DNA of 32,000 nt, from positions 4,929,390 through 4,961,389 of the forward strand of contig NZ_CP063785.1 of NCBI RefSeq assembly GCF_025860405.1, read 5' to 3'. This document shows, in pieces, positions 14,859 through 24,101 of the stretch (the stretch's first letter is position 1; the number at the start of each line of letters is the position of its first letter). The position numbers and the translations under genes were made by a program. The notes beneath the pieces are model-generated. The model was not told the origin of the DNA. It made no database searches and saw only the letters and a list, made by a program, of their open reading frames with translations. Origin of the DNA: Tolypothrix sp. PCC 7712. GTDB lineage: Bacteria; Cyanobacteriota; Cyanobacteriia; Cyanobacteriales; Nostocaceae.

Positions 14859-16307
14859 TTACACTTGATAAACTTCATGCCCCCTAATTTCTACACCATG
14901 TGCAGCGAGACATTTTTCCCAGCCTTCACGGGTGCCAATTTCGCTTTTTTGCTGGAGTAGCCCTAGTTGCTGTTCTTGTTGGGTGAGTTTCGCAAATTCT
15001 TCGTAGAGTGGATAGTTTGGCGTGACAAAAGTTTCTTTACGGTGCAAAATTGGCGGATTGGTTCGGGTCTCGTAGTCGCGGTGAGTGATTCTGAGGGTTA
15101 GGAAGTCAATAATGATACTGGCTTTTAAGGCAGGGTGGGGGTCTGTGTCGAATTCTGGGTAAAAGAGATAGCAAATTTGCGGTTTATCAGTGCAAAATTT
15201 GATTAAAGTGGCACCATCTACACGCCCGATGGTACGGCTGGCGCAGCCTTCATAGATTCGCAGTAAAGCATCGAGTTCTGCAAGAGCAGAAACATGGACA
15301 TATAATGCCCCACGGGTATGTTTACCTATTTTGCTTTTTTCGCAAGCTGTTTGCACTACCCTGGGTTGTCCTAAGCTAAACAGTTTTTGGTCGGCGACTC
15401 CACAAGCTTCTTCGTAACTGCCAAAAAAGGCTTTGATGTCATGACGAATTTCTAGGGCGAGTTTCTGCCATGAGGGGCGTTGTTCAAAGTGGGTGAGGGC
15501 GAGATAAACTTGGATATCCAGAGAACGACGATAGGCGATCGCATCCCATTCTGCTTCATCGGTAGCTTGTAATACTACACCAAAGGCACGACGGAAGTTA
15601 CCAAATTCACTCAGTAGTTCCTGTTCGTTGCTCAATTCTCCTTTGACTGGTAATCTCCCGCGTTGGGTGAAAAAAGCCATCAATGGTGCCAGTAGTTCTT
15701 GGTAATCTTCAAAGCGCTTGCTGGGAATGCGAACTCTGGGCGTAGAAGTGCGAGAAAAGAAGCGGATGGCTTTGAAACTTTGTTTTTCGGCTTCATCGCG
15801 AAAGACAAAATAAACACCTAAAGCTACGGGTACAGCATCTACATTCAGTACCTCATCAATGTAACTTTTCAGTTCTTCTTGCTCGTAATATTTCTGAAAA
15901 GTATTGCGCCGGGTAACAATTCCATCACTGTAAGCTAATTGGGTTTTACTTGGGGCGTTAACTAAAACTTGTGCAGCGACAATTAAGACTTTGCGGGTGA
16001 GTTCCCAAGCTTTAATTAAGCTTTCCCGGCGTTCTTGAGTATCTTCAATAACATTGAGGACATAACCCAAATTCACAACATCGGCGGCGGTGATTTCATC
16101 CTCAGGATAATAATAAGGATCCCAGCCGCCACTGGTATAACCTAAATTTGCCACGCGCTGGACATCACCACCGTAGCCGCAACCGTAGTCAAAGAAAGTC
16201 GTTTCCTGATTGAGGATTGACCATTCTATAGCTAATCGTACCGGACGAGAGATATCAGTACGTGCGATCGCAGCTCTGTGACGCTCAATTTCTAACGCTT
16301 CAGGCAT
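14859..16307 (-). CDS. DNA phosphorothioation-associated putative SAM-methyltransferase (N-terminal class-I MTase plus about 350 aa of unknown sequence)
   Basis: 482 aa. SAM motif I is FFDYGCGYGGDV, followed by VVNLGYVLNVIED. The C-terminal region ends ...NPPILHRKETFVTPNYPLYEEF, which I recognise from the dnd-linked methyltransferase family. It lies 43 nt downstream of dndE on the same strand. Confidence 0.7.
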   Translation of the reverse strand: MPEALEIERHRAAIARTDISRPVRLAIEWSILNQETTFFDYGCGYGGDVQRVANLGYTSGGWDPYYYPEDEITAADVVNLGYVLNVIEDTQERRESLIKAWELTRKVLIVAAQVLVNAPSKTQLAYSDGIVTRRNTFQKYYEQEELKSYIDEVLNVDAVPVALGVYFVFRDEAEKQSFKAIRFFSRTSTPRVRIPSKRFEDYQELLAPLMAFFTQRGRLPVKGELSNEQELLSEFGNFRRAFGVVLQATDEAEWDAIAYRRSLDIQVYLALTHFEQRPSWQKLALEIRHDIKAFFGSYEEACGVADQKLFSLGQPRVVQTACEKSKIGKHTRGALYVHVSALAELDALLRIYEGCASRTIGRVDGATLIKFCTDKPQICYLFYPEFDTDPHPALKASIIIDFLTLRITHRDYETRTNPPILHRKETFVTPNYPLYEEFAKLTQQEQQLGLLQQKSEIGTREGWEKCLAAHGVEIRGHEVYQV

Positions 16308-16310
16308 AAT

Positions 16311-16340
16311 ACAGTCAACAGTTAACAGTCAACAGTTAAC
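16311..16340. repeat. STRR heptamers filling the dndE-methyltransferase spacer
   Basis: ACAGTCAACAGTTAACAGTCAACAGTTAAC belongs to the same heptamer family as 5573-5622 and 14683-14780. It ends 3 nt from the ATG of the methyltransferase. Confidence 0.85.
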
Positions 16341-16350
16341 TAATATCCTG

Positions 16351-16737
16351 TCAATCTTTTAGCGCTAGTTCCATTAAATCTTCAATTTTCTTGATATTTG
16401 GATCACCGGCTAAGTAACCAATTCCCCGATGTAAATGCAAGCGAAATTGAGTAGCGAGGGTTTCTTTATCGGTGGCGTAACCGTCATTGTGACACCTTTG
16501 CTTGAGCGCGAGGAGAAGGATCTCGGACATATCGCCACCAAAAACGCGCCAGGTTAATTCCACATTGCTATCTTGGGGGATGGGTACAGGGGAAGGTGGT
16601 GTGGGTTCTGCAAGAGAACGACAAAAAGCCCAACGACATAATATATTCCATTGGTCAATTTTTGTACTGCGGCGCAGTTTAAGTAATTGGTCTTTAGCTG
16701 TTTGAGAAAGTTTAAATCTTTCGATAGGTGATTCCAT
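16351..16737 (-). CDS. dndE: DndE-like DNA sulfur-modification protein
   Basis: 128 aa with RFKLSQTAKDQLLKLRRSTKIDQWNILCRWAFCRSL and LATQFRLHLHRGIGYL. Both the size and these motifs match DndE (DUF1832) as I remember it. Confidence 0.75.
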   Translation of the reverse strand: MESPIERFKLSQTAKDQLLKLRRSTKIDQWNILCRWAFCRSLAEPTPPSPVPIPQDSNVELTWRVFGGDMSEILLLALKQRCHNDGYATDKETLATQFRLHLHRGIGYLAGDPNIKKIEDLMELALKD

Positions 16738-17133
16738 AAATTAAAACTAAAACTAAGACTCTATGATTATGCTTTCACATAATTAATGCTACTGACAACA
16801 TATTAGAGTTTTTGTATAGTATTGGACTAAGTATATAAAATATTGTTAATCTAACAAGAGCAAAACATATTAAAAATAACTTCTTAGCCAAAAAGCAAAA
16901 ATGCTCTGTAAATATTTTGAACCTTAGTTAAGCAAAGCTTAGTTCTGACTACGTTAACGAGCAATAACAGTCAGTGATAATACACCTCAGTTGATGATTC
17001 AGCTTGGTTAATCTCTTAGAGAGAGAAGAAAATTTTTTTGTATCTCTTTTGTTACCATATAGAATAAAGTTAAAGCCCAGATAAAAATCGTTCATTATAG
17101 CCAAAAAGTATACAAATAAACTCTTTTGTAAAT

Positions 17134-17514
17134 ATGTCACAATTTGTTTACATAGTTAGAAGTGGAGAAACTAACAGATATAAAATTGGGATGACTAAGA
17201 ATATCTATCAAAGATTTAAAAAATTACAAGGAACAGATGCACCTTATTATATAAACTCAATCCATCATATAAAAGTAATTAATAGTAGAGTTATAGAAAA
17301 GTATTTACATAATAAGTATAAAAGCTATCAGGTAAAAGGTGAATGGTTTGAACTGAATGAAAATCTAGTAAAAAGTGTTGTAAAAGACATGGATTTTCAA
17401 GGAATTCTTCAACTAGCAGCAGAATTAAGCATTGAAGAGCTTCTTGAATTGCAAATGGAACTTATTAAATTATGCCACTCTAAAATAGCCCAAACGAGCG
17501 AAATACACTGTTAA
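17134..17514 (+). CDS. GIY-YIG superfamily protein of the T5orf172/MUG113 type
   Basis: 126 aa with FVYIVRSGETNRYKIGMTKNIYQRFKKLQ ... IEKYLHNKYKSYQVKGEWFELNEN. It is antisense to the flanking dnd genes, and its codon usage is very AT-rich. Confidence 0.7.
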   Translation: MSQFVYIVRSGETNRYKIGMTKNIYQRFKKLQGTDAPYYINSIHHIKVINSRVIEKYLHNKYKSYQVKGEWFELNENLVKSVVKDMDFQGILQLAAELSIEELLELQMELIKLCHSKIAQTSEIHC

Positions 17515-17569
17515 AAGTAGTGATTAGCATAAAAAAACAAAAATTAGTCCTAATTAATCAACAATACTA

Positions 17570-17818
17570 TCAGTAACAATTGAAAAAATTAGACGATTTA
17601 TTTTTACATGATGCCACAGAGGCAATTTCTCTCTGTATATCTAAATCATTAGCCATTGCAGCTAGTTGTTGATTCATGGATTGCACATTAGCCAGTTGAT
17701 GAGATAATTGTTTCTTTTCTTGCACTTTGCTTTCGATACGTTCTAGGAGCCATTCTAGTTCTTCTAATGACAGATTACTTAAGTCACGCTCTATTTCTTT
17801 TAGATATGGTGAGATCAT
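17570..17818 (-). CDS. hypothetical 82-aa coiled-coil protein
   Basis: MISPYLKEIERDLSNLSLEELEWLLERIESKVQEKKQ... starts at the ATG at 17816-17818; the track's TTG extension is not needed. It is co-oriented with dndD and dndE. No family recognised. Confidence 0.45.
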   Translation of the reverse strand: MISPYLKEIERDLSNLSLEELEWLLERIESKVQEKKQLSHQLANVQSMNQQLAAMANDLDIQREIASVASCKNKSSNFFNCY

Positions 17819-17935
17819 AACTGCATATACCTTTGCCAAATGTTGTTAGATATATTGTAAATATCTGAGAGGAAATCAATTGCGATTACTTCTTCTGGTA
17901 ATCAGCTCATCACTCGATTATTTAGAAGAAAAATA

Positions 17936-19918
17936 TTACCAGAAATATTTATTGTTGATCACTGTGGTTTGACGAGTAGCAGAGTTGTAATCTAGGAGAT
18001 ATTCGTGAGCGATCGCTTCATTTTCTCTCAGTGTCTCAACTTCTTTTTTACCAATTTCTGTATCCGTAGAAAGCAAAATTACCTGGTGGCTGGCGGAGGG
18101 AAAGTACCGTTCTACAAGGTTACTGCGGTGGGATGAGTCGAGTCTGCCAAGGGGGGTGTCAATTGCTACTGGTAAGCGGCGACCGGAGACTCTAGCTAAA
18201 CCCCAAAGAAATGCGATCGCTAGTAGTTGTTTTTCGCCAGCAGAAAGGCGATGTTTGGGGACGGGTTTACCGTTTAAGTCGTACAGCGACAGGCTGAAAG
18301 TGTTGGTGTCAATCGCGACGCGATGAACTAAATCAGATTTATGTAACAGATAGCGGAAACATTCTGTGACTTCAACTTCTAATTTGTTGAGTTTTCTCAG
18401 AGTTAATTTCTTGCGGAAAAGTTTGAGGGTTTCTTGGACTCTCACCGCAGATTCAATAATATGTCCTTTGTTTTGAAGTTTAAGACTTGTATCTGTGTAG
18501 TTTTCTAAGTCTTTTTTAGTATTTTCAATCTCCGTTGCTAATTCATCTAAGCGACGTTTGGTAATTTCCCAAGCAGCTTTAGCTTCTGCAACTTGCTGTT
18601 GTGCTTGTTGTAATTCATCAACTAATCTTTGATATTCTTCCGGTGAGGCTGCGGTTTGAATTTGTCTTTCTAAGGTGATAATCTCTTCTTCTTGAGAATT
18701 CAGCAGCGTAATTTTATCTTTCGCTTTGGTTTTGGCATATTCCAAGTGATGATGGATGACATTATCTAATTGATGTAGGGTTTCTGTGTCAGCTAATAGC
18801 CAAGGTTCAGCAATGGCGGCGTTATCTAAATCTTGATTTTCTTGGGAGATAAATTCTTTAATTTGAGTCACTGCTGCTTGTTCAATAGCTAATTGATTAA
18901 TCAAATTGAGTAGCTTTTTATCTCTTTCAATTAATAAATCATGTGCCACTTTCGCTTGTTGAATGCGGAATTCCTCTTCACCTTGGTTATAAGCCTGATT
19001 TAATAGCGGTGTAATCAATCCTAGAGGTAAAAATTCGGCAGATAAATCACACAACGATTGGCGGATTTTTTCTGTTTCGGTGATTCTTTCTTGCTTTTTT
19101 TTCTCTAATTGGCTGCGTTCTCCGGCAATTTTGCCACCCTCAGAAATAAATTTATGTACAGCTTCCTGCTGTCTAGCTTCGGCGGCGGTTAAATTCTCTT
19201 GGAGAGATGTAATTGATTGGGATTCTTGATGATACGCCTCTTGTAATTCTTGCAACTTCTCTTCAATTTCTTCAATATTCGCTAAATCTTTAGTATCAGC
19301 CAGTTCCTTGCGTTTGCGATTGACTAAAATATCTAAATCTACCGCTAATCTATCGGCTAACTCTAAACCTAAAAGTCCGCTAATCGCATCTACTACAATT
19401 GGCGGTGGTATTTCTTGTTCTGCGAGTTCTTTAACTTGTTCGCCATCAAATAAAAATAAGTTAGATATTCCTACAGGTAGGAGATTTTCAATATATTCAT
19501 CCCAAATATTTACTAAAGCTGTATCTAGCCATTCATGGGCATCTAAAATACCTAAATGGTCTTTACCATCTTTAGGATTTTTTTCCCAAGTACGGACAAC
19601 GCGGTATTTTACTGGCTTGTCATTTTCGATATGTTCAAAAAGTAATTCAATGCGTGTCTTTTCTACTGGATCGGTTTTGCTATTAACGCATTGAGTGAGG
19701 AAATCGCTATAACTTAAATTACCACGAGTGGAACATTGAGCGCGATGCCCATAAAGTGCCAGGCGAATTGCGTCCATGAGGGTGGTTTTTCCGCCACCAT
19801 TCATTCCACCTAACAGAATAATTGGGCGAGAATTTTCATGATTTCTGGGGTCAAGATTGATTACTTGTTTACCAGCGTAGGGGCCAAAGTTTTGTAATAC
19901 GAGTTCGAGAAATATCAT
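17936..19918 (-). CDS. dndD: DndD-like SMC/ABC-type ATPase
   Basis: 660 aa. The N-terminus reads LVLQNFGPYAGKQVINL...RPIILLGGMNGGGKTTLMDAIRLALYG (P-loop). A long central coiled coil follows. The C-terminus carries LSAGEKQLLAIAFLWGLA and LPVAIDTPLGRLDSSHR. Confidence 0.85.
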   Translation of the reverse strand: MIFLELVLQNFGPYAGKQVINLDPRNHENSRPIILLGGMNGGGKTTLMDAIRLALYGHRAQCSTRGNLSYSDFLTQCVNSKTDPVEKTRIELLFEHIENDKPVKYRVVRTWEKNPKDGKDHLGILDAHEWLDTALVNIWDEYIENLLPVGISNLFLFDGEQVKELAEQEIPPPIVVDAISGLLGLELADRLAVDLDILVNRKRKELADTKDLANIEEIEEKLQELQEAYHQESQSITSLQENLTAAEARQQEAVHKFISEGGKIAGERSQLEKKKQERITETEKIRQSLCDLSAEFLPLGLITPLLNQAYNQGEEEFRIQQAKVAHDLLIERDKKLLNLINQLAIEQAAVTQIKEFISQENQDLDNAAIAEPWLLADTETLHQLDNVIHHHLEYAKTKAKDKITLLNSQEEEIITLERQIQTAASPEEYQRLVDELQQAQQQVAEAKAAWEITKRRLDELATEIENTKKDLENYTDTSLKLQNKGHIIESAVRVQETLKLFRKKLTLRKLNKLEVEVTECFRYLLHKSDLVHRVAIDTNTFSLSLYDLNGKPVPKHRLSAGEKQLLAIAFLWGLARVSGRRLPVAIDTPLGRLDSSHRSNLVERYFPSASHQVILLSTDTEIGKKEVETLRENEAIAHEYLLDYNSATRQTTVINNKYFW

Positions 19919-20073: not shown

Positions 20074-20287
20074 AGAGGTTAAGTTTTTTGATGTTAACTG
20101 AACGGTATTGAATTATAAAACAACGGGATGGACATTTATCATCAAAAATGTTGGGTACTCAATTCCAAAATGCGAGAAAATCTCCGTTACCAGAGTAAAT
20201 ATTAATTGATTTGGATGATTTATTACCAAAACAGTTGAGCTAGATTACAATCTCCATCAGCATAATCTCGTATTTATTGCCGAAAAT

Positions 20288-20725
20288 ATGGAGCCTGTGA
20301 CACTCACTGCTGCGGGAATCGCCACCCTAGTGTTTACCAAAGCTTTTGAAACCACTATAGAGAAAGCAACAGAAAGTGTTCTGAAAAAATTGGAACAGCT
20401 TCGCCAGAAGATTTTGCAGAAATTCAAGGGTACGCCCAGGGTAGAAGCAGCTTTGGTAAAAGTACAGCAAGGCTCACAGGAAGATTTAAATGTGGTGGCT
20501 GCTTATTTGCAAGAGGCGATGAACAACGATCCCCAATTTGCGGAAGAGGTGAAAACCCTTGCCACAGAAATTCACCAAGAAATTAATATTGGGAAGGTGG
20601 AAGGCAAGAATGTGCAGAATGTTTACGGTGGCGAGGCTTTTCAGTCTAATGATGCTAAGGCTCCCACAATTCAAGGGGGTAGTGGTCACACTATTAATAT
20701 TACCTATAATAATTCCCCTGATTGA
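20288..20725 (+). CDS. 145-aa helical N-terminal module of the STAND locus, ending at an in-frame TGA
   Basis: It starts at an ATG. A hydrophobic first helix (VTLTAAGIATLVFTKAF) is followed by amphipathic helices and a G/N/Q-rich tail (GKVEGKNVQNVYGGEAFQSN..IQGGSGHTINITYNN). It shares a reading frame with the NB-ARC ORF, and the TGA at 20723-20725 is the only stop between them. Confidence 0.65.
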   Translation: MEPVTLTAAGIATLVFTKAFETTIEKATESVLKKLEQLRQKILQKFKGTPRVEAALVKVQQGSQEDLNVVAAYLQEAMNNDPQFAEEVKTLATEIHQEINIGKVEGKNVQNVYGGEAFQSNDAKAPTIQGGSGHTINITYNNSPD

Positions 20726-20785
20726 CTAAAGTCGCCTGAACGGGAACAGGTAAAGTCTCATCCCCAGGGTGAAATACCGCAAAAT

Positions 20786-22870
20786 TTGCCCCTGAGTGGG
20801 GTAGTGGAATTTGTGGGACGTGGGGAAGAATTGCAAACACTCCAGCAGATGTTGCAGCAAAATCAACAAGTAGCCATTGCGGCTATTGCGGGGATGGGTG
20901 GAGTTGGCAAAACAGAACTGGCGTTGCAATATGCCATTGAGTACCGCGACAATTATCAAGGTGGAATTTGCTGGTTGTTGCCCAAATCTGGGGATATTGG
21001 GGTGCAAATTGTCCAGTTTGCGAGAACGCAGCTAGATTTAAACCCGCCAACAGATGTAGATTTACCCGCGCAAGTGCAATTTTGCTGGCGGCGTTGGCGT
21101 GAGGGTGATGTGCTGCTGGTGTTGGATGATGTTGCTGATTATCAGGAAGTTAAACCTTACTTTGTGTCGCTATCTTCTCGGTTCAAAATCCTGATTACTA
21201 CTCGCCAGCAGTTGGGGCGCATAGAAACATTATCTTTAGATGTGCTGCAACCAGAGGCGGCGCTGGAATTATTAAAGTCAATTATTGGGGCAGAAAGGTT
21301 TGAGCGGGAAAATCAACGCCACCCCCAGGTAGCATTACAGTTATGTGAGTGGCTGGGATATTTGCCTTTGGGTTTGGAGTTGGTAGGGCGGTATCTGGCG
21401 CGGAAACCAGATTTATCTTTGGTAGAAATGCTGGAACGCTTGAAGAAACAGCGACTAGAACAACGCGCCCTTAAGAAAGCAGAAGCCGATATGACAGCAC
21501 AACGGGGTGTGTTAGCAGCTTTTGAGTTGAGTTGGCAGGAATTAGAGGAAGATGATCAACAACTGGGCTGTTTATTGAGTGTATTTGCAGCCGCACCTAT
21601 ACCTTGGGTGTTGGTAGAACAGTGTTTACCAGAGGAAGATGGGGAAGATTTAGAAGAAATTAGGGATGATAAGTTGTTGAATTTGTATTTACTCCAGCGT
21701 AAAGGTGAGGGAATCTATCAACTACATCCCCTGTTGCGGGAGTTTTTTCAATATAAGCTGACAGGGTTAGATAAAGCAGAGGGATTTAAGCGAAGTTTTT
21801 GTGGAGTAATGGTAGCAGTTGCTAAAGATATTCCTGACACTCCCACACTTCAGCAAATTAAAGATGTCGCCCCCGCCATACCTCACTTGATAGAAGTAGC
21901 AGACAATCTCATTCAGTATGTCAGCAATGATAATATAGTCAACATTTTCACAAAGTTGGGTGAATTTTATGAGGATCAGGGATTATATGAGCAAGCAAAA
22001 CCTTGGTACAAGCAGTGCCTAATCATTAGTCAAAAGCTCTTTGGTTCTAAGCATCTATACGTTGCTCAAAGCTTCAACAATCTAGCGGAACTCTACAAAT
22101 TACAAGGACGCTACACAGATGCTGAACTCTTATTGTTACAGGCCGTGGAACTTACACAAGTCCTTTTTGGAGAGGAAGATTTATTCGTTGCCACTAGTCT
22201 CAACAATCTGGCTGAACTCTACAAATTACAAGGGCGTTACAAAGAAGCTGAACCCATATTTTTACAAGCTTTAAAACTAAGACAGCATCTGTTGGGAGAG
22301 GAAGATTCATTAGTCGCTACTAGTCTCAATAATCTAGCTGAACTCTACAAGTTGCAAGAACGCTATACAGAAGCTGAACCCCTACTTCTAAAAGCTGTGG
22401 CAGATTTTCAAAATCTACTGGGATATGAGCATCGATTAGTTGCTACTAGTCTCAACAATCTGGCAACGCTCTACTTTTTACAAAGACGTTATATCGAAGC
22501 TGAACCTTTGTTTTTGCAAGTTTTAAAATTAAGACAAATCCTGCTAGGAAAGGAACATCCTGAAGTTGCTCAAAGTCTCAACAATATAGCCGAACTTTAC
22601 AAACTACAAGGGCGTGATACAGAAGCTGAAGTGTTATTTTTGCAGGCTTTGGAACTAGAACAACGCTTGCGAGGAAATGAACATCCTAATGTTGCTATTA
22701 GCTTTAGTAATCTAGCCTTTCTCTATATGTCACAGCATCGTTACACAGAAGCTGAACATCTATTAAAGCAAGCCTTATATATTTGTGAATGCAGTTTGGG
22801 GATAGGTCATCCCAAAACAATAATAGTTCGGAGCAATTACGCAATTTTTCTAAGGCAGGCATATCGTTAG
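20786..22870 (+). CDS. NB-ARC/TPR STAND NTPase (NLR-like); start codon uncertain
   Basis: It carries FVGRGEEL, the Walker A IAGMGGVGKTELA, the Walker B LLVLDDV, ILITTR and a GLPL-type motif (LGYLPLGLELVG). Seven 42-aa TPR units of the form VATSLNNLAELYKLQGRYxEAEPLxLQAL follow. The track start is a TTG inside the conserved NLPLSG motif. The first in-frame ATG is at 20849, and GTGs lie at 20804 and 20813. Confidence 0.8.
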   Translation: MPLSGVVEFVGRGEELQTLQQMLQQNQQVAIAAIAGMGGVGKTELALQYAIEYRDNYQGGICWLLPKSGDIGVQIVQFARTQLDLNPPTDVDLPAQVQFCWRRWREGDVLLVLDDVADYQEVKPYFVSLSSRFKILITTRQQLGRIETLSLDVLQPEAALELLKSIIGAERFERENQRHPQVALQLCEWLGYLPLGLELVGRYLARKPDLSLVEMLERLKKQRLEQRALKKAEADMTAQRGVLAAFELSWQELEEDDQQLGCLLSVFAAAPIPWVLVEQCLPEEDGEDLEEIRDDKLLNLYLLQRKGEGIYQLHPLLREFFQYKLTGLDKAEGFKRSFCGVMVAVAKDIPDTPTLQQIKDVAPAIPHLIEVADNLIQYVSNDNIVNIFTKLGEFYEDQGLYEQAKPWYKQCLIISQKLFGSKHLYVAQSFNNLAELYKLQGRYTDAELLLLQAVELTQVLFGEEDLFVATSLNNLAELYKLQGRYKEAEPIFLQALKLRQHLLGEEDSLVATSLNNLAELYKLQERYTEAEPLLLKAVADFQNLLGYEHRLVATSLNNLATLYFLQRRYIEAEPLFLQVLKLRQILLGKEHPEVAQSLNNIAELYKLQGRDTEAEVLFLQALELEQRLRGNEHPNVAISFSNLAFLYMSQHRYTEAEHLLKQALYICECSLGIGHPKTIIVRSNYAIFLRQAYR

Positions 22871-23009
22871 TACTTATCTCGCTTTAGAGTAGTAATAAAT
22901 TTATGGGTGCATACGAGAATGGAGAGATTAGCAGAGAGACTTAAGAGTTTTTTCTAAGACTAGTTGTGATGTGATCATGATATGCGCTATCTCAAATACC
23001 AACTTTCGT

Positions 23010-23156
23010 GTTCTGAACTCGAAGTTTCCTGTTTCAAGTGAGAATGTTCCTGTTTCAAACGAGAACGTTCTGGTTCCAAGTGAGAATGTTCCTGTTTCAA
23101 ACGAGAACGTTCTGGTTCCAAATGAGAATGTTCCTGTTTCAAACGAGAATTTTTCT
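23010..23156. repeat. tandem array of seven 21-bp units (42-bp super-period) containing the palindrome AGAACGTTCT
   Basis: The units alternate between GTTTCAAACGAGAACGTTCTG and GTTCCAAGTGAGAATGTTCCT. Boundaries fall at 23010, 23031, 23052, 23073, 23094, 23115 and 23136. Confidence 0.85.
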
Positions 23157-23186
23157 GTTCTGAGGTGGAATGATGGAGTTATGAAG

Positions 23187-23488
23187 GCGATCGCTCTGTT
23201 AAAATTCTCTGTTGTCTGGTGTGCGATCGCAATTCCGCAGATGACAGCAGTCTGATTTTACTGAATCAGTGCGATCGCTCTGTAAAAATTCTCCGTTGTC
23301 TGGTGTGCGATCGCAATTCCGCAGATGACAGCAGTCTGATTTTACTGAATCAGTGCGATCACTCTCTTAAAATTCTCCATTGTCTGGTGTGCGATCGCAA
23401 ATCCGCAGATGACACTAACCTGATTTTATGGAATCAGTGCGATCGCTCTTGTAAAATTCTCCGTTGTCTGGTGTGCGATCGCAATTCC
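23187..23488. repeat. 84-bp tandem repeat, about 3.6 copies, two HIP1 sites per unit
   Basis: Units start at 23187, 23271, 23355 and 23439. Units 1 and 2 differ at two positions. Unit 3 is more diverged. Unit 4 is truncated after 50 bp. Confidence 0.9.
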
Positions 23489-23500
23489 TCAGCCTATCTT

Positions 23501-23525
23501 GTAGAGACGCGATTCATCGCGTCTC
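23501..23525. terminator. hairpin repeat GTAGAGACGCGATTCATCGCGTCTC (same family as 790-817)
   Basis: It lies 10 bp past the stop of the 23535..24101 gene, at the end of the repeat-filled convergent spacer. Confidence 0.6.
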
Positions 23526-23534
23526 CCACAGTTA

Positions 23535-24101
23535 TTAATTATTTGCTGGAACTAGTTGCACATCTTCACAGGAACCACCTGTCAGGCTATAGTCATCCAC
23601 TTGAACCCAGCTATCCTGACCTAAAGCCCAAAATCCTGTGAAAATATTGTACACAGTTTCATTGCCAGTTCTAAACGATAGTGTCATAGGTGTGTAGCGA
23701 GGTAAACTACCAAACTTGATTTCGGAAAAAACCTTCTGTTGAGCATCTCGCACTCCAAAATAACCATCTGTAACATTGCCTGATGTGCGGATATATGCTG
23801 TTAACTTATATTGAGTGTTGGGTTGGAGTCTGACGCGTTGACGAATACCATTCCATCCCGAAACATTCCGCATCCAGACATTATTTTTACCCCTATTGCT
23901 GTAGCCTAATCCAATATCAACGCCAACTCTACCTTCCCCAACCCAAGGACTGCTGATTCTTTGGCTAGCTTGTGCTTCAAAGTCTCCACCATTTAGGGGA
24001 GCAGCGCAAGAAGCTGGAGTTTTAGTAGAAGGGAAACTCAGGGAAATTACAGCAGTGATGAATACTGCTATTTTGCTGAGAGGTAACTGTTTACTAGTCA
24101 T
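23535..24101 (-). CDS. secreted protein with a CBM4/9-like (galactose-binding-like) jelly-roll domain
   Basis: 188 aa with an N-terminal signal peptide (IAVFITAVISLSF). The NGGDFE..W..G opening motif, YKLTAYIRTSG and a C-terminal VQVDDYSL are typical of CBM-type beta-sandwiches. Confidence 0.55.
   Translation of the reverse strand: MTSKQLPLSKIAVFITAVISLSFPSTKTPASCAAPLNGGDFEAQASQRISSPWVGEGRVGVDIGLGYSNRGKNNVWMRNVSGWNGIRQRVRLQPNTQYKLTAYIRTSGNVTDGYFGVRDAQQKVFSEIKFGSLPRYTPMTLSFRTGNETVYNIFTGFWALGQDSWVQVDDYSLTGGSCEDVQLVPANN

Follow-up and report, generated by a model that had tools for sequence, protein, structure and literature searches.

A conserved in-frame stop codon with a downstream RNA element suggests programmed readthrough between Bell-like effectors and NLR-like NTPases of cyanobacteria

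A single in-frame UGA separates a small Bell-like protein from an NLR-like STAND NTPase in the window, the 32,000-nucleotide stretch of Tolypothrix sp. PCC 7712 DNA analysed here. Together with a downstream RNA element, this stop recurs at 115 distinct junctions from many filamentous cyanobacteria, 65 of them from genomes and 50 from metagenomes. Comparison of these sequences suggests programmed stop-codon readthrough, which would yield a free Bell-like effector and a minor effector-motif-NLR fusion, and we put the probability of this reading at about 0.68. Readthrough was among the causes listed in the original prediction, and it is the option that the comparative data back. The RNA structure beyond the stop and the connection to Bell/BASS amyloid signalling come in addition to what that prediction had noted.

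All features described here lie on the forward strand. ORF1 (20288–20725) runs from the ATG at 20288 to the TGA at 20723–20725 and encodes the short termination product of 145 aa. The next listed ORF, that of the NTPase, extends from a TTG at 20786 to 22870 in the same frame; in the window translation the two are offset by 498 nt, or 166 codons. Translation of 20288–22870 meets one stop only, with the junction reading ...NITYNNSPD*LKSPEREQVKSHPQGEIPQNLPLSGVVEFVGRGEELQTL, and so confirms the shared frame and the lone TGA first noted from the ORF coordinates. Past the stop, a read-through linker of 28 codons without a conserved start codon (LKSPEREQVKSHPQGEIPQNLPLSGVVE; 20726–20809) leads into the STAND NTPase body (20810–22870, stop TAG 22868–22870). 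The body begins with the FVGR preamble (20810–20821) and places the window protein in the NB-ARC/TPR NLR-like class, with an NB-ARC domain (about 20828–21487; PF00931, 3.6e-16) carrying the Walker A motif GMGGVGKT (20891–20914), followed by seven TPR_12/TPR_10 stretches in Pfam (array at about 21917–22795; TPR_12 1.8e-91, TPR_10 2.3e-72). The candidate starts named earlier (TTG 20786, GTG 20804, GTG 20813 and ATG 20849) are all present, and initiation at ATG 20849 would indeed delete the FVGR block. Gene callers differ over the NTPase start, giving products of 688 aa and 694 aa. In a scan for promoters and terminators, promoter-like and terminator-like matches were not commoner than in shuffled sequences; no terminator was found between ORF1 and the NTPase ORF, and a promoter-like match at 20683–20710 did not exceed expectation.

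The stop itself is strictly maintained. TGA-C is found at 109 of the 115 junctions and TAG-C at the other six; the search for a sense codon at this site, proposed as a check on the original prediction, found none. All 65 genome loci, which were collected by protein homology alone, carry TGA-C. A metagenome scan with a pattern that omitted the stop returned 52 TGA, 12 TAG and no sense codon, and its six further matches were unrelated GC-rich chance hits. The base at +4 is C in 115/115 junctions; the metagenome search pattern imposed it on 50 of these, and the 65 genome junctions, where it was unconstrained, all have C. The codon after the stop is CTA in 66 and CTG in 43 of the 115, and the base at –1 is a pyrimidine in 113. 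The switches from TGA to TAG argue, at the level of sequence, for selection for 'stop-ness' and not for one particular codon. Across the window, genes end with TAA (10), TAG (5) or TGA (4). Genome-wide reassignment of TGA is ruled out: under table 11 no window gene is broken, and the four that end with TGA include dndE. Estimates of dN/dS, compared separately for the two halves as the original prediction had proposed, were below 0.3 or reached it only at the upper end (0.10–0.21 for ORF1 and 0.15–0.30 for the NTPase, at dS values up to about 2), and on these values both halves are under purifying selection. The recurrence of the in-frame stop arrangement is far above chance.

The conserved context (TGA then C, 20723–20726) is followed by an 8-nt spacer, CTAAAGTC (20726–20733; consensus CTNNAGYC), and by an RNA structure. 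Stem 1 is a hairpin at 20734–20751, formed in the window by GCCTG (20734–20738), the loop AACGGGAA (20739–20746) and CAGGT (20747–20751), and the spacer between stop and stem measures 8 nt in every register found. The stem was predicted independently by RNAalifold. Across the alignment 97.5% of cells pair, and sliding the partner lowers this to 10–40%; both sides have changed in 36 cells, the pair types include CG, UA, UG and GC, and 24 arm combinations occur. In the metagenome matches, the two stem positions that the search pattern did not specify are paired in 41/43 and 43/43 cases, compared with about 30–32 after shuffling. G-U cells (42) outnumber A-C cells (6), an excess that points to sense-strand RNA. 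By this comparative evidence, stem 1 is a conserved 5-bp hairpin with compensatory changes.

The hairpin probably forms an H-type pseudoknot, through a second stem (20742–20764) in which the loop bases GGGA (20742–20745) would pair with TCCC (20761–20764), leaving an L3 of 9 nt. Stem 2 pairs in 91.8% of cells and lies in exact register in 85/116 junctions, compared with 2.1 when the tails are shuffled. Compensatory variants exist (CGGA:TCCG in L058, AGGC:GCCT in L060, GGGGGC:GCTCCC in L062 and CAGA:TCTG in L061), but they are few and the stem is mostly invariant, so that its support is weaker than that of stem 1. A covariance model of the element gave one match per locus, at the junction only, in 748 kb of flanking sequence, which rules out a dispersed repeat or mobile element, and gave no match on two-gene loci whose NLR has its own start. 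Folded singly, the window element is no more stable than shuffled sequences (z = –0.45) and favours an alternative pairing that is not conserved in other loci; structural support for the element is comparative only. A search of 20200–21000 against Rfam returned only a spurious lncRNA match (E = 2.7).

Frame 0 is preserved beyond the stop. It stays open for at least 200 codons in 96/115 junctions and reaches the contig end in seven more, and the downstream ORF closes before 200 codons in 12. The downstream STAND NTPase is in frame 0 in 115/115. Frames +1 and +2 close within about 10–14 codons in all 115 junctions, which rules out +1/–1 frameshifting at the stop. The position of FVGR varies by whole codons only (codon 24, 25, 26, 29, 31, 32, 35 or 41), and indels within the RNA element are –3, +3 and +3, plus one compensating +1/–1 pair in L026. 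The first 14 linker codons are constrained at the nucleotide level (position entropies 0.62/0.47/0.54), and codons 15–24 show a coding-type wobble excess (0.99/0.88/1.36) resembling that of the NB-ARC region. The junction is fused in frame to varied NTPases (NB-ARC-TPR, NACHT-HEAT, NACHT, NB-ARC+APAF1_C and TANC1-lid type), and the upstream module also varies, being an alpha/beta-hydrolase in L122. Frame conservation could largely be inherited with an element of fixed length, in which case the number of independent in-frame events is about ten, not 115. The junctions thus bring together a stop kept as a stop with interchange among stops only, conserved in-frame coding downstream, a leaky context and a 3' structure at a fixed short distance. 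Readthrough has been linked to UGA, to C at +4, to the UGA-CUA context and to a structure lying a few nucleotides downstream (8 in MuLV; PMC7026636).

The product of ORF1 is clearly, from its sequence conservation, a stand-alone protein: its homologues measure 135–167 aa in 83/83 cases, and an exhaustive profile search of the family gave 738 clusters, nearly all of 130–155 aa. The AlphaFold2 model shows a helical bundle over residues 1–105 (20288–20602), with helices at 8–16, 19–26, 29–45, 50–60, 64–80 and 82–105 and a pLDDT of about 85 over residues 30–100. Residues 107–145, GKNVQNVYGGEAFQSNDAKAPTIQGGSGHTINITYNNSPD (20606–20722), form a predicted-disordered region (pLDDT below 50 over residues 102–145) that holds a candidate BASS-like amyloid-signalling motif; this motif matches the N-terminus of the NLR of a two-gene relative, L068, at 13/23 positions (E = 2e-5). 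Bell proteins have 120–140 aa with an all-alpha domain of about 100 aa, modelled as a bundle of roughly five helices, and a hydrophobic N-terminal helix, with position 2 or 3 acidic (Dyrka et al. 2020, bioRxiv 10.1101/2020.01.06.895854). The window protein has the size and the all-alpha model, with helices over residues 8–105, and it also has the N-terminal trait (MEPVTLTAAGIATLVFTKAF); E2, P3, T7, A8, I11, A12, T13 and L14 are nearly invariant in the family. We call the domain Bell-like, an assignment made by these described features and without a profile match to founding Bell sequences such as ONI86675.1. Pfam, NCBIfam, PADLOC and PHROGs returned no family for ORF1, and Pfam, NCBIfam and PADLOC hold no Bell model. 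Foldseek of the model against the PDB gave nothing better than E = 2, so the fold search neither confirms nor denies a HeLo/MLKL/Bab-like ancestry, and the family profile had no meaningful match among PDB sequences.

Relatives of ORF1 that end in TAA, TAG or TGA-A are organised differently. Their NLR begins at an ATG 7–30 nt downstream, in frame 0, 1 or 2 (the exception is L078, with its first start at +129 and first ATG at +135), they have no RNA element, and the small protein's motif is repeated at the start of the NLR. This repetition of the effector's C-terminal motif at the adjacent NLR N-terminus is seen in L067, L068, L070, L071, L073–L075 and L077–L079, and on sequence such a locus is a classical Bell/BASS amyloid-signalling pair. 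At the window locus, the frame of the NLR begins from the TGA and contains no second motif copy; the motif would be duplicated only by way of the predicted readthrough product. The true all-in-one fusions P0186, P0188 and P0222 do not have the RNA element either, and P0098, the sole 'fusion' bearing the element's peptide, has a TGA in its DNA.

An unlikely alternative is that two proteins are made without any fusion: ribosomes would terminate at the UGA, the RNA element would position them, and the NTPase would restart at a non-AUG codon, such as the Ile/Val codon 17, TTG 20786 or GTG 20804. The stand-alone nature of the small protein suits this scheme, as does the fact that paired Bell and NLR genes usually overlap or are tightly coupled (Dyrka et al.). 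A conserved Ile/Val codon (AUA/AUU/AUC/GUN) lies 17 codons past the stop and is in principle a weak non-canonical start; the window and about 40% of junctions have some TTG or GTG before FVGR, and the shared frame may in part be accidental, frozen in by an element of fixed length. Against it, no canonical start is conserved. Between stop and FVGR, 49/87 FVGR-bearing junctions have no in-frame ATG, GTG or TTG, the first candidate start is the Walker A Met in 11 of the 87, and Shine-Dalgarno-like sequences before the NTPase are rare. Where an NLR starts at an ATG of its own, the 'IP' motif lies inside the protein, which makes it a piece of the domain preamble and not a start. All indels in or after the element preserve the frame, including the +1/–1 pair, and NTPases of unrelated families all follow in frame. 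Furthermore, restarting would give an NLR without the signalling motif, which all relatives with independent initiation have. A functional split into two genes, another option of the original prediction, therefore holds for the small protein, which is conserved on its own, but not for an NTPase without conserved start, ribosome-binding site or signalling motif of its own. An NTPase with a proper start and ribosome-binding site occurs only in the subgroup that has neither the in-frame TGA-C nor the RNA element.

It is less likely again that the locus is an ordinary two-gene operon whose hairpin regulates the mRNA, as a processing site, stabiliser, attenuator or protein-binding site, and whose frame is meaningless. 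Short conserved hairpins are common between co-transcribed genes, and this stem is small and has no U-tract on its 3' side. Such an operon leaves unexplained the fixed 8-nt spacing from the stop, the preserved frame and the startless NTPase, and it sits poorly with a stop that is always TGA-C or TAG-C where window genes mostly use TAA. The junctions have no conserved NTPase start and a frame fixed at 0, unlike an ordinary bicistron, and the element is missing from true fusions and from every locus whose NLR comes with an ATG and motif of its own.

Selenocysteine insertion at the UGA, with the hairpin as a bacterial SECIS, is very improbable. The layout is shared with bacterial selenoprotein genes, whose coding sequence has a conserved hairpin no more than about 10 nt past an in-frame UGA, and here too the loop has G residues. 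In contrast to those genes, six junctions from at least two lineages have TAG with the same structure, no homologue has Cys at the position, and the site is a disordered interdomain linker and not a redox centre. There is no matching Rfam family, and the probable pseudoknot is not a SECIS feature. Cyanobacteria, not reported to decode Sec, appear in the selenium-utilisation surveys consulted only with selD/ybbB (selenouridine) or an orphan selD (PMC1273633, PMC5029168). A recent nonsense mutation, a pseudogene or a sequencing error in a single 860-codon gene has next to no probability, even though all-in-one Bell-NB-ARC fusions occur elsewhere (P0186, P0188): the exact 145-aa product is found on 13 contigs from at least four independent assemblies, the stop is present in every relative with the junction at dS up to about 2 with both halves under purifying selection, and true fusions have no conserved element.

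Under programmed readthrough, the locus would be one translational unit. Most ribosomes would stop at the UGA (20723–20725) and release the 145-aa protein, a Bell-like bundle with a C-terminal amyloid-type signalling motif. Favoured by the weak UGA-C(UA) context and the structure 8 nt downstream, a minority would decode the UGA, presumably with a near-cognate tRNA, for example tRNA-Trp, and go on in frame to give a product of about 860 aa, with the same Bell domain and motif atop the NB-ARC/TPR sensor. If the locus works like two-gene Bell/BASS-NLR systems, the rare fusion would oligomerise in response to a ligand and so cluster its motifs, which would then template the abundant free effector, leading to membrane action and cell death. 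Readthrough would both fix the effector:sensor ratio and guarantee an identical motif in the two partners. From these sequences we infer the occurrence and frequency of readthrough, the inserted amino acid, the amyloid behaviour of the motif and a role in cell death or defence; the mechanistic step draws on viral and eukaryotic signals by analogy. For bacterial 70S ribosomes, we know of no chromosomal gene in which readthrough stimulated by a structure has been demonstrated. The hydrolase-type upstream module of L122 has no obvious amyloid motif, and the templating rationale may not be general.

A bolder version, which we consider rather unlikely, is that stop, spacer and pseudoknot make up a portable bacterial recoding cassette whose readthrough is regulated, where the favoured reading takes it as constitutive. 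Readthrough might respond to RF2/RF1 availability, to translation stress, to phage takeover or to a factor binding the conserved GGGAA loop. The level of decoding would then set the amount of sensor-effector fusion, and with it the threshold or trigger of an amyloid-propagated suicide response. A literature search on readthrough in bacterial NLR, BASS and cyanobacterial systems and on Nostoc punctiforme locus tags found no report.

The closest known systems are the Bell/BASS-NLR pairs (Dyrka et al. 2020), whose motif duplication on the NLR is shared by the ORF1 relatives L067–L079. In contrast, the NLRs of the window and the 114 other junctions have neither a motif copy nor their own start, and are joined in frame through a conserved TGA-C or TAG-C and an RNA structure. 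The screen of Dyrka et al. was for motif pairs and would miss such junction loci; their text makes no mention of stop codons or readthrough. Experimentally studied relatives include Bab/Agp in E. coli (10.1101/2024.11.07.622273) and fungal HET-S/NWD2.

As a signal, the junction resembles that of MuLV gag-pol (UAG, 8-nt spacer, H-type pseudoknot; PMC7026636) in its leaky stop, its spacer and its compact probable pseudoknot, and in the prediction of two products with a common N-terminus and a set ratio. It also shares UGA and the C at +4, within CUA or CUG, with viral and eukaryotic UGA-CUA contexts (PMC7026636). Whereas MuLV is a virus, the junctions form a bacterial chromosomal family, served by 70S ribosomes and RF1/RF2 and known here from sequence; their stems are shorter (5 + 4 bp) and have no sequence similarity to the viral ones. 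The predicted readthrough product has the effector-NOD-repeat architecture of all-in-one NLRs of fungi and bacteria, found naturally in the cyanobacterial proteins P0186, P0188 and P0222, which share its Bell-like domain and motif, but the readthrough protein would be the minority product of an ORF that mostly gives free effector. In dnaX, a –1 frameshift stimulated by a downstream structure yields tau and gamma. The coat/A1 pair of coliphage Q-beta arises by UGA readthrough (PMC7026636). Both are fixed-ratio pairs with a shared N-terminus, as predicted here; the junctions differ from dnaX in that the predicted event is readthrough and not frameshifting, from Q-beta in being a cellular gene family and not a phage, and from both in having a dedicated conserved structure in a system of the immune or cell-death type.

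Annotation pipelines now split such genes and assign the NTPase arbitrary starts. If confirmed, readthrough at these junctions would be, to our knowledge, the first widespread case of structure-associated programmed readthrough in bacterial chromosomal genes, and would make more than 100 natural sequence variants of a recoding signal available for study. A large class of 'startless', motif-less cyanobacterial NLR-like receptors would have its expression accounted for, and a third NLR/effector architecture, in which one ORF gives both proteins, would join the two-gene amyloid pairs and the all-in-one fusions.

On the forward strand, the small upstream gene (ORF1) runs from an ATG at 20288 to a TGA at 20723–20725 and encodes 145 aa; the next listed ORF, from a TTG at 20786 to 22870, encodes an NTPase in which seven TPR_12/TPR_10 stretches follow the NB-ARC domain. 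Translation of 20288–22870 gives one stop only, which confirms the original prediction that the two ORFs share a frame and are separated by a single TGA. Sequencing error, one of the causes offered there for this stop, is refuted. The exact 145-aa product occurs on 13 contigs and is encoded in independent assemblies (GCA_002368275.1, GCA_015207145.1, GCA_000300115.1 and one Logan run), and the TGA is thus not a read error. A recent nonsense mutation is likewise excluded, since the stop is kept in relatives and the two halves, compared separately between orthologues at dS values up to ~2, are both under purifying selection (dN/dS 0.10–0.21 for ORF1 and 0.15–0.30 for the NTPase). The same selection rules out a pseudogene. 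The window's own genes end in TAA (10), TAG (5) and TGA (4), and the standard code reads them without interruption. Two gene callers place the NTPase start differently (688 aa versus 694 aa). Public annotations of the identical locus (L151–L154) give 694 aa from TTG 20786 or 688 aa from a GTG at 20804 in the GVG region, and a Logan assembly has the NTPase in two pieces of 489 and 192 aa; automatic annotation of these genes is therefore unstable.

The locus adjoins a phosphorothioation-type cluster on the reverse strand (14859–19918) that comprises dndD (best PADLOC match PbeC), dndE and a dnd-associated methyltransferase, and is interrupted on the forward strand by a GIY-YIG-like T5orf172/MUG113 gene (17134–17514). 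Neither dndB nor dndC was seen among the window ORFs scanned. This setting looks like a defence island. Directly 3′ of the NTPase, at 23026–23492, lie two tandem-repeat arrays, with a 42-nt unit repeated 2.8 times (97% matches) and an 84-nt unit repeated 3.6 times (91% matches), the latter carrying copies of GCGATCGC (HIP1). These arrays account for the repetitive ‘ORFs’ at 22971–23641.

ORF1 itself has no family match in Pfam, NCBIfam, PADLOC or PHROGs. A 5.8-billion-protein index gave 83 homologues, every one 135–167 aa long, with 34–100% identity, from Tolypothrix, Nostoc, Calothrix, Scytonema, Microcoleus and other genera; an exhaustive profile search returned 738 clusters, nearly all of 130–155 aa. 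Judged by this sequence conservation, the ORF1 protein is a conserved stand-alone product. Members share a hydrophobic N-terminal helix, in which residue 2 is Glu, and a helical body, and the AlphaFold2 model of ORF1 consists of a helical bundle (residues 8–105) and a disordered tail (residues 102–145). Fold and sequence searches of the PDB were uninformative. A hydrophobic N-terminal helix and a helical body are features of the Bell domain as described by Dyrka et al. The ORF1 domain matches that description and is called Bell-like on the basis of these published features, not of profile homology to the founding members.

Eighty genome loci encoding ORF1 relatives were retrieved. In 65 of them, the window included, a TGA followed by C closes the small ORF, a long downstream ORF continues in frame with no further stop, and the other two frames close almost immediately past the stop. 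Metagenome contigs were scanned with a pattern built from the conserved sequence 3′ of the stop, the stop itself being left out. TGA precedes 52 of the 70 matches and TAG 12; the other 6 are unrelated and arose by chance in GC-rich sequence. A sense codon occupies this position in no genuine instance. The original prediction had raised TGG, CGA, GGA or another sense codon in orthologues, and only stops were found in genome and metagenome junctions. After pooling and de-duplication (n = 115), the stop and next base read TGAC in 109 junctions and TAGC in 6, the +1 codon is CTA in 66 and CTG in 43, and base –1 is a pyrimidine in 113. Frame 0 remains open for at least 200 codons in 96 junctions, runs off the contig end in 7 and closes before 200 codons in 12; frames +1 and +2 are closed in all 115. 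The 12 early-closing junctions (L007, L027, L036, L058, L059, L063, L064, L083, L087, L107, L116 and L123) may represent decay, misassembly or short alternative extensions, those of L063 and L064 being 140–154 aa without Pfam domains.

The other 15 genome loci comprise two damaged or truncated junction-type loci (L066 and L069) and 13 two-gene relatives (among them L067, L068, L070–L075 and L077–L080), which are 41–55% identical. In these 13, the ORF1 homologue ends in TAA, TAG or TGA-A. They serve as a natural control, in which the downstream NLRs use frames 0, 1 and 2 with no bias and the RNA element is absent. Ten (L067, L068, L070, L071, L073, L074, L075, L077, L078 and L079) carry at the NLR N-terminus a clear copy of the motif found at the C-terminus of the small protein (MTQINQDNAKGWQTKVEGGTVYQGDINIHHAP against MNQSNQDNAKGWQTQVEGGTVYQGDISIYNSP in L077; EVWNVIGKAEKNEFIDNKAPIIKDNTGTINISYGQPP against EQWTVTGNAERNVYIDNKAPIIPGNQGTVNITYGQLP in L068). 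In most of the ten an ATG lies 7–30 nt past the stop; in L078 a start first appears at +129 and an ATG at +135. A motif shared by the effector C-terminus and the NLR start is the defining arrangement of the Bell/BASS–NLR amyloid-signalling pairs of Dyrka et al. Residues ~107–143 of the window protein are of the same type as the L068 motif, with 13/23 positions identical to the L068 NLR copy (E = 2e-5). The two-gene order of ATG, motif, a short linker ending in PPNN and IPxxGxxxFVGR is collinear with the window order of Bell, motif, stop, LQSPERERAKLNPPNN and IPxxGxxxFVGR. The window-type NLR thus lacks exactly what a readthrough product would supply.

As originally proposed, the downstream ORF has no convincing start of its own: of the 87 junctions in which an FVGR preamble can be recognised, 49 have a stop-to-FVGR stretch devoid of in-frame ATG, GTG and TTG, the first candidate in 11 of the 87 is the Met of the Walker A loop, and SD-like sequences are rare. 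The window TTG at 20786 aligns to TTA in several orthologues. Codons 1–14 past the stop have position entropies of 0.62/0.47/0.54 with no wobble excess, a nucleotide-level constraint. Codons 15–24, which precede any conserved start, have a wobble excess typical of translated sequence (0.99/0.88/1.36), in agreement with the NB-ARC region (1.0/0.67/1.38). Termination–reinitiation or non-canonical initiation, for which a conserved Ile/Val codon 17 is a candidate site, appears unlikely to us and fits poorly with the length changes across junctions. FVGR is located at codon 24, 25, 26, 29, 31, 32, 35 or 41 past the stop, and all these changes preserve the frame, as do indels within the RNA element that follows the stop (–3 in L024, L027 and L032; +3 in L034, L035 and L062). 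In L026 a +1 change in the loop is offset by –1 about 25 nt further on, a pair to which we give limited weight because the assembly is presumably an old draft. Reinitiation also agrees poorly with the in-frame joining of unrelated NTPases: the modules found 3′ of the stop and element are NB-ARC–TPR at most loci, NACHT–HEAT, NACHT, NB-ARC with an APAF1-type helical domain and a TANC1-lid type NTPase. Moreover, the ‘IP’ motif is internal in NLRs that have their own ATG, and reinitiation would give an NLR without the signalling motif. On the 5′ side, most junctions have a globular domain of one Bell-like superfamily, with several different C-terminal motifs (...GSGHNITFN, ...KNVFQGNTFNGTNIF, ...AQTQTIDQRNSTFNI, ...YAQGNIRIDRQDIHI and ...GGTHTHNYNT). 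In L122 (JAAUYH010089630.1, junction ~1610–1660) the TGA and element instead follow a 285–309-aa alpha/beta-hydrolase of DUF676/PGAP1 type (weak DUF676/PGAP1/Abhydrolase_6 matches, ~1e-4), which leads in frame into a P-loop protein and has no obvious amyloid motif; the cassette is hence not tied to a single effector type.

The RNA element begins exactly 8 nt past the stop with a 5-bp hairpin on the forward strand, stem 1 (GCCTG 20734–20738, loop AACGGGAA, CAGGT 20747–20751), which RNAalifold predicted unprompted. Across 64 sequences, 97.5% of cells pair, compared with 10–40% when the partner is slid by 1–3 columns, and 36 cells carry two-sided changes. Individual pairs include CG, UA, UG and GC, and 24 different arm combinations occur. 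At the two stem positions not fixed by the search pattern, 41/43 and 43/43 metagenome sequences pair, against ~30–32 after shuffling. The covarying changes alter amino acids (P/S, R/Q/P, A/V/T), so that the constraint acts on RNA, and the excess of G-U pairs (42 cells) over A-C (6) points to the sense-strand RNA. A probable stem 2 would join GGGA in the loop (20742–20745) to TCCC (20761–20764), 9 nt past stem 1, in canonical H-type pseudoknot geometry. It is mostly invariant, with same-register compensatory variants in L058 (CGGA:TCCG), L060 (AGGC:GCCT), L062 (GGGGGC:GCTCCC) and L061 (CAGA:TCTG). The hairpin is kept at TAG-C junctions (L084, L086, L091, L094, L099, L115, L133, L134, L137, L140, L146 and L149, and also L061 5448–5510), and L061 has other bases throughout both rebuilt stems, stem 1 being GTCGA/TCGAC. 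L117 and L145, sister NLRs of the TAG-C loci, have nearly identical downstream sequence but TGA. The window element alone folds no better than shuffles, and the evidence for structure is therefore comparative. The element has no Rfam match; its covariance model gave one match per locus in 748 kb, at the junction only, and none in any two-gene locus whose NLR has its own start. It also matches in L066 (5376–5482), possibly a damaged copy or an error of MAG assembly, whose small ORF is frameshifted, and in L069 (295–345), whose small ORF is truncated at the end of the contig. That the hairpin is regulatory and unrelated to decoding seems to us quite improbable, as it would leave stop identity, spacing and frame unexplained.

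Bell-like domain and motif also occur fused to NB-ARC–TPR in one polypeptide (P0186, 957 aa; P0188, 967 aa; P0222), and the element's peptide is absent from these three proteins. The sole long protein with ‘W’ followed by LNSSERDRTKLTPP is P0098, entered as a 386-aa Bell–NB-ARC ‘fusion’ that has Trp at the junction. At DNA level (L155 917–919) this codon is TGA, and the Trp apparently stems from a metagenome gene caller that translated TGA as Trp; anyone searching for fused homologues could be misled by entries of this kind. The fusion architecture is thus workable, and wherever the element occurs a stop accompanies it. Further stop-less fusions join Bell-like domain and motif to modules that by eye are TIR-like (FFSYSHKDE...), CHAT-like plus TIR-like, or GUN4-like (P0085, P0108, P0185, P0099, P0114 and P0198), and the Bell-like helical domain may serve as an adaptor in other architectures.

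The combined sequence evidence points to programmed stop-codon readthrough, the one among the originally offered causes that the comparative pattern favours. A conserved stop with characteristic context, structure and frame is the signature by which programmed readthrough is recognised in viruses and animals. Here the stop is kept as a stop with TGA/TAG interchange, in a weak context and with an 8-nt spacer before a covarying structure; the frame is preserved, an independent start is lacking and coding-type evolution sets in right past the element. UGA followed by C at +4 and then CUA/CUG is the weakest known stop context, and the window layout mirrors the murine leukaemia virus order of stop, 8 nt and pseudoknot (PMC7026636). 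A selenocysteine UGA is very improbable, as TAG variants exist, no Cys homologues were found and cyanobacteria are not among the Sec decoders in two selenium-utilisation surveys (PMC1273633, PMC5029168).

The free and readthrough products would be about 16 and 97 kDa in size. The junction peptide of the readthrough product would be APTIQGGSGHTINITYNNSPD-X-LK, with X, expected to be Trp for a UGA, at the stop position. The data show the comparative pattern; that readthrough occurs is inferred from it, and its frequency, the inserted residue, the amyloid nature of the motif and the target of the defence are likewise inferences. Each of the three components, Bell/BASS pairs, all-in-one NLRs and structure-stimulated readthrough, is already known on its own. 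An effector–sensor readthrough cassette is not mentioned in the Bell/BASS paper, in the two Aravind-group surveys of these conflict systems or in recoding reviews, and as far as established, a conserved readthrough cassette that ties effector to sensor in bacterial chromosomal genes is a new combination. One ORF would yield two products, an abundant free Bell-like effector with its motif and a rare effector–motif–NLR fusion. On the model of the two-gene relatives, oligomerisation of the NLR would let the fusion nucleate the free effector.
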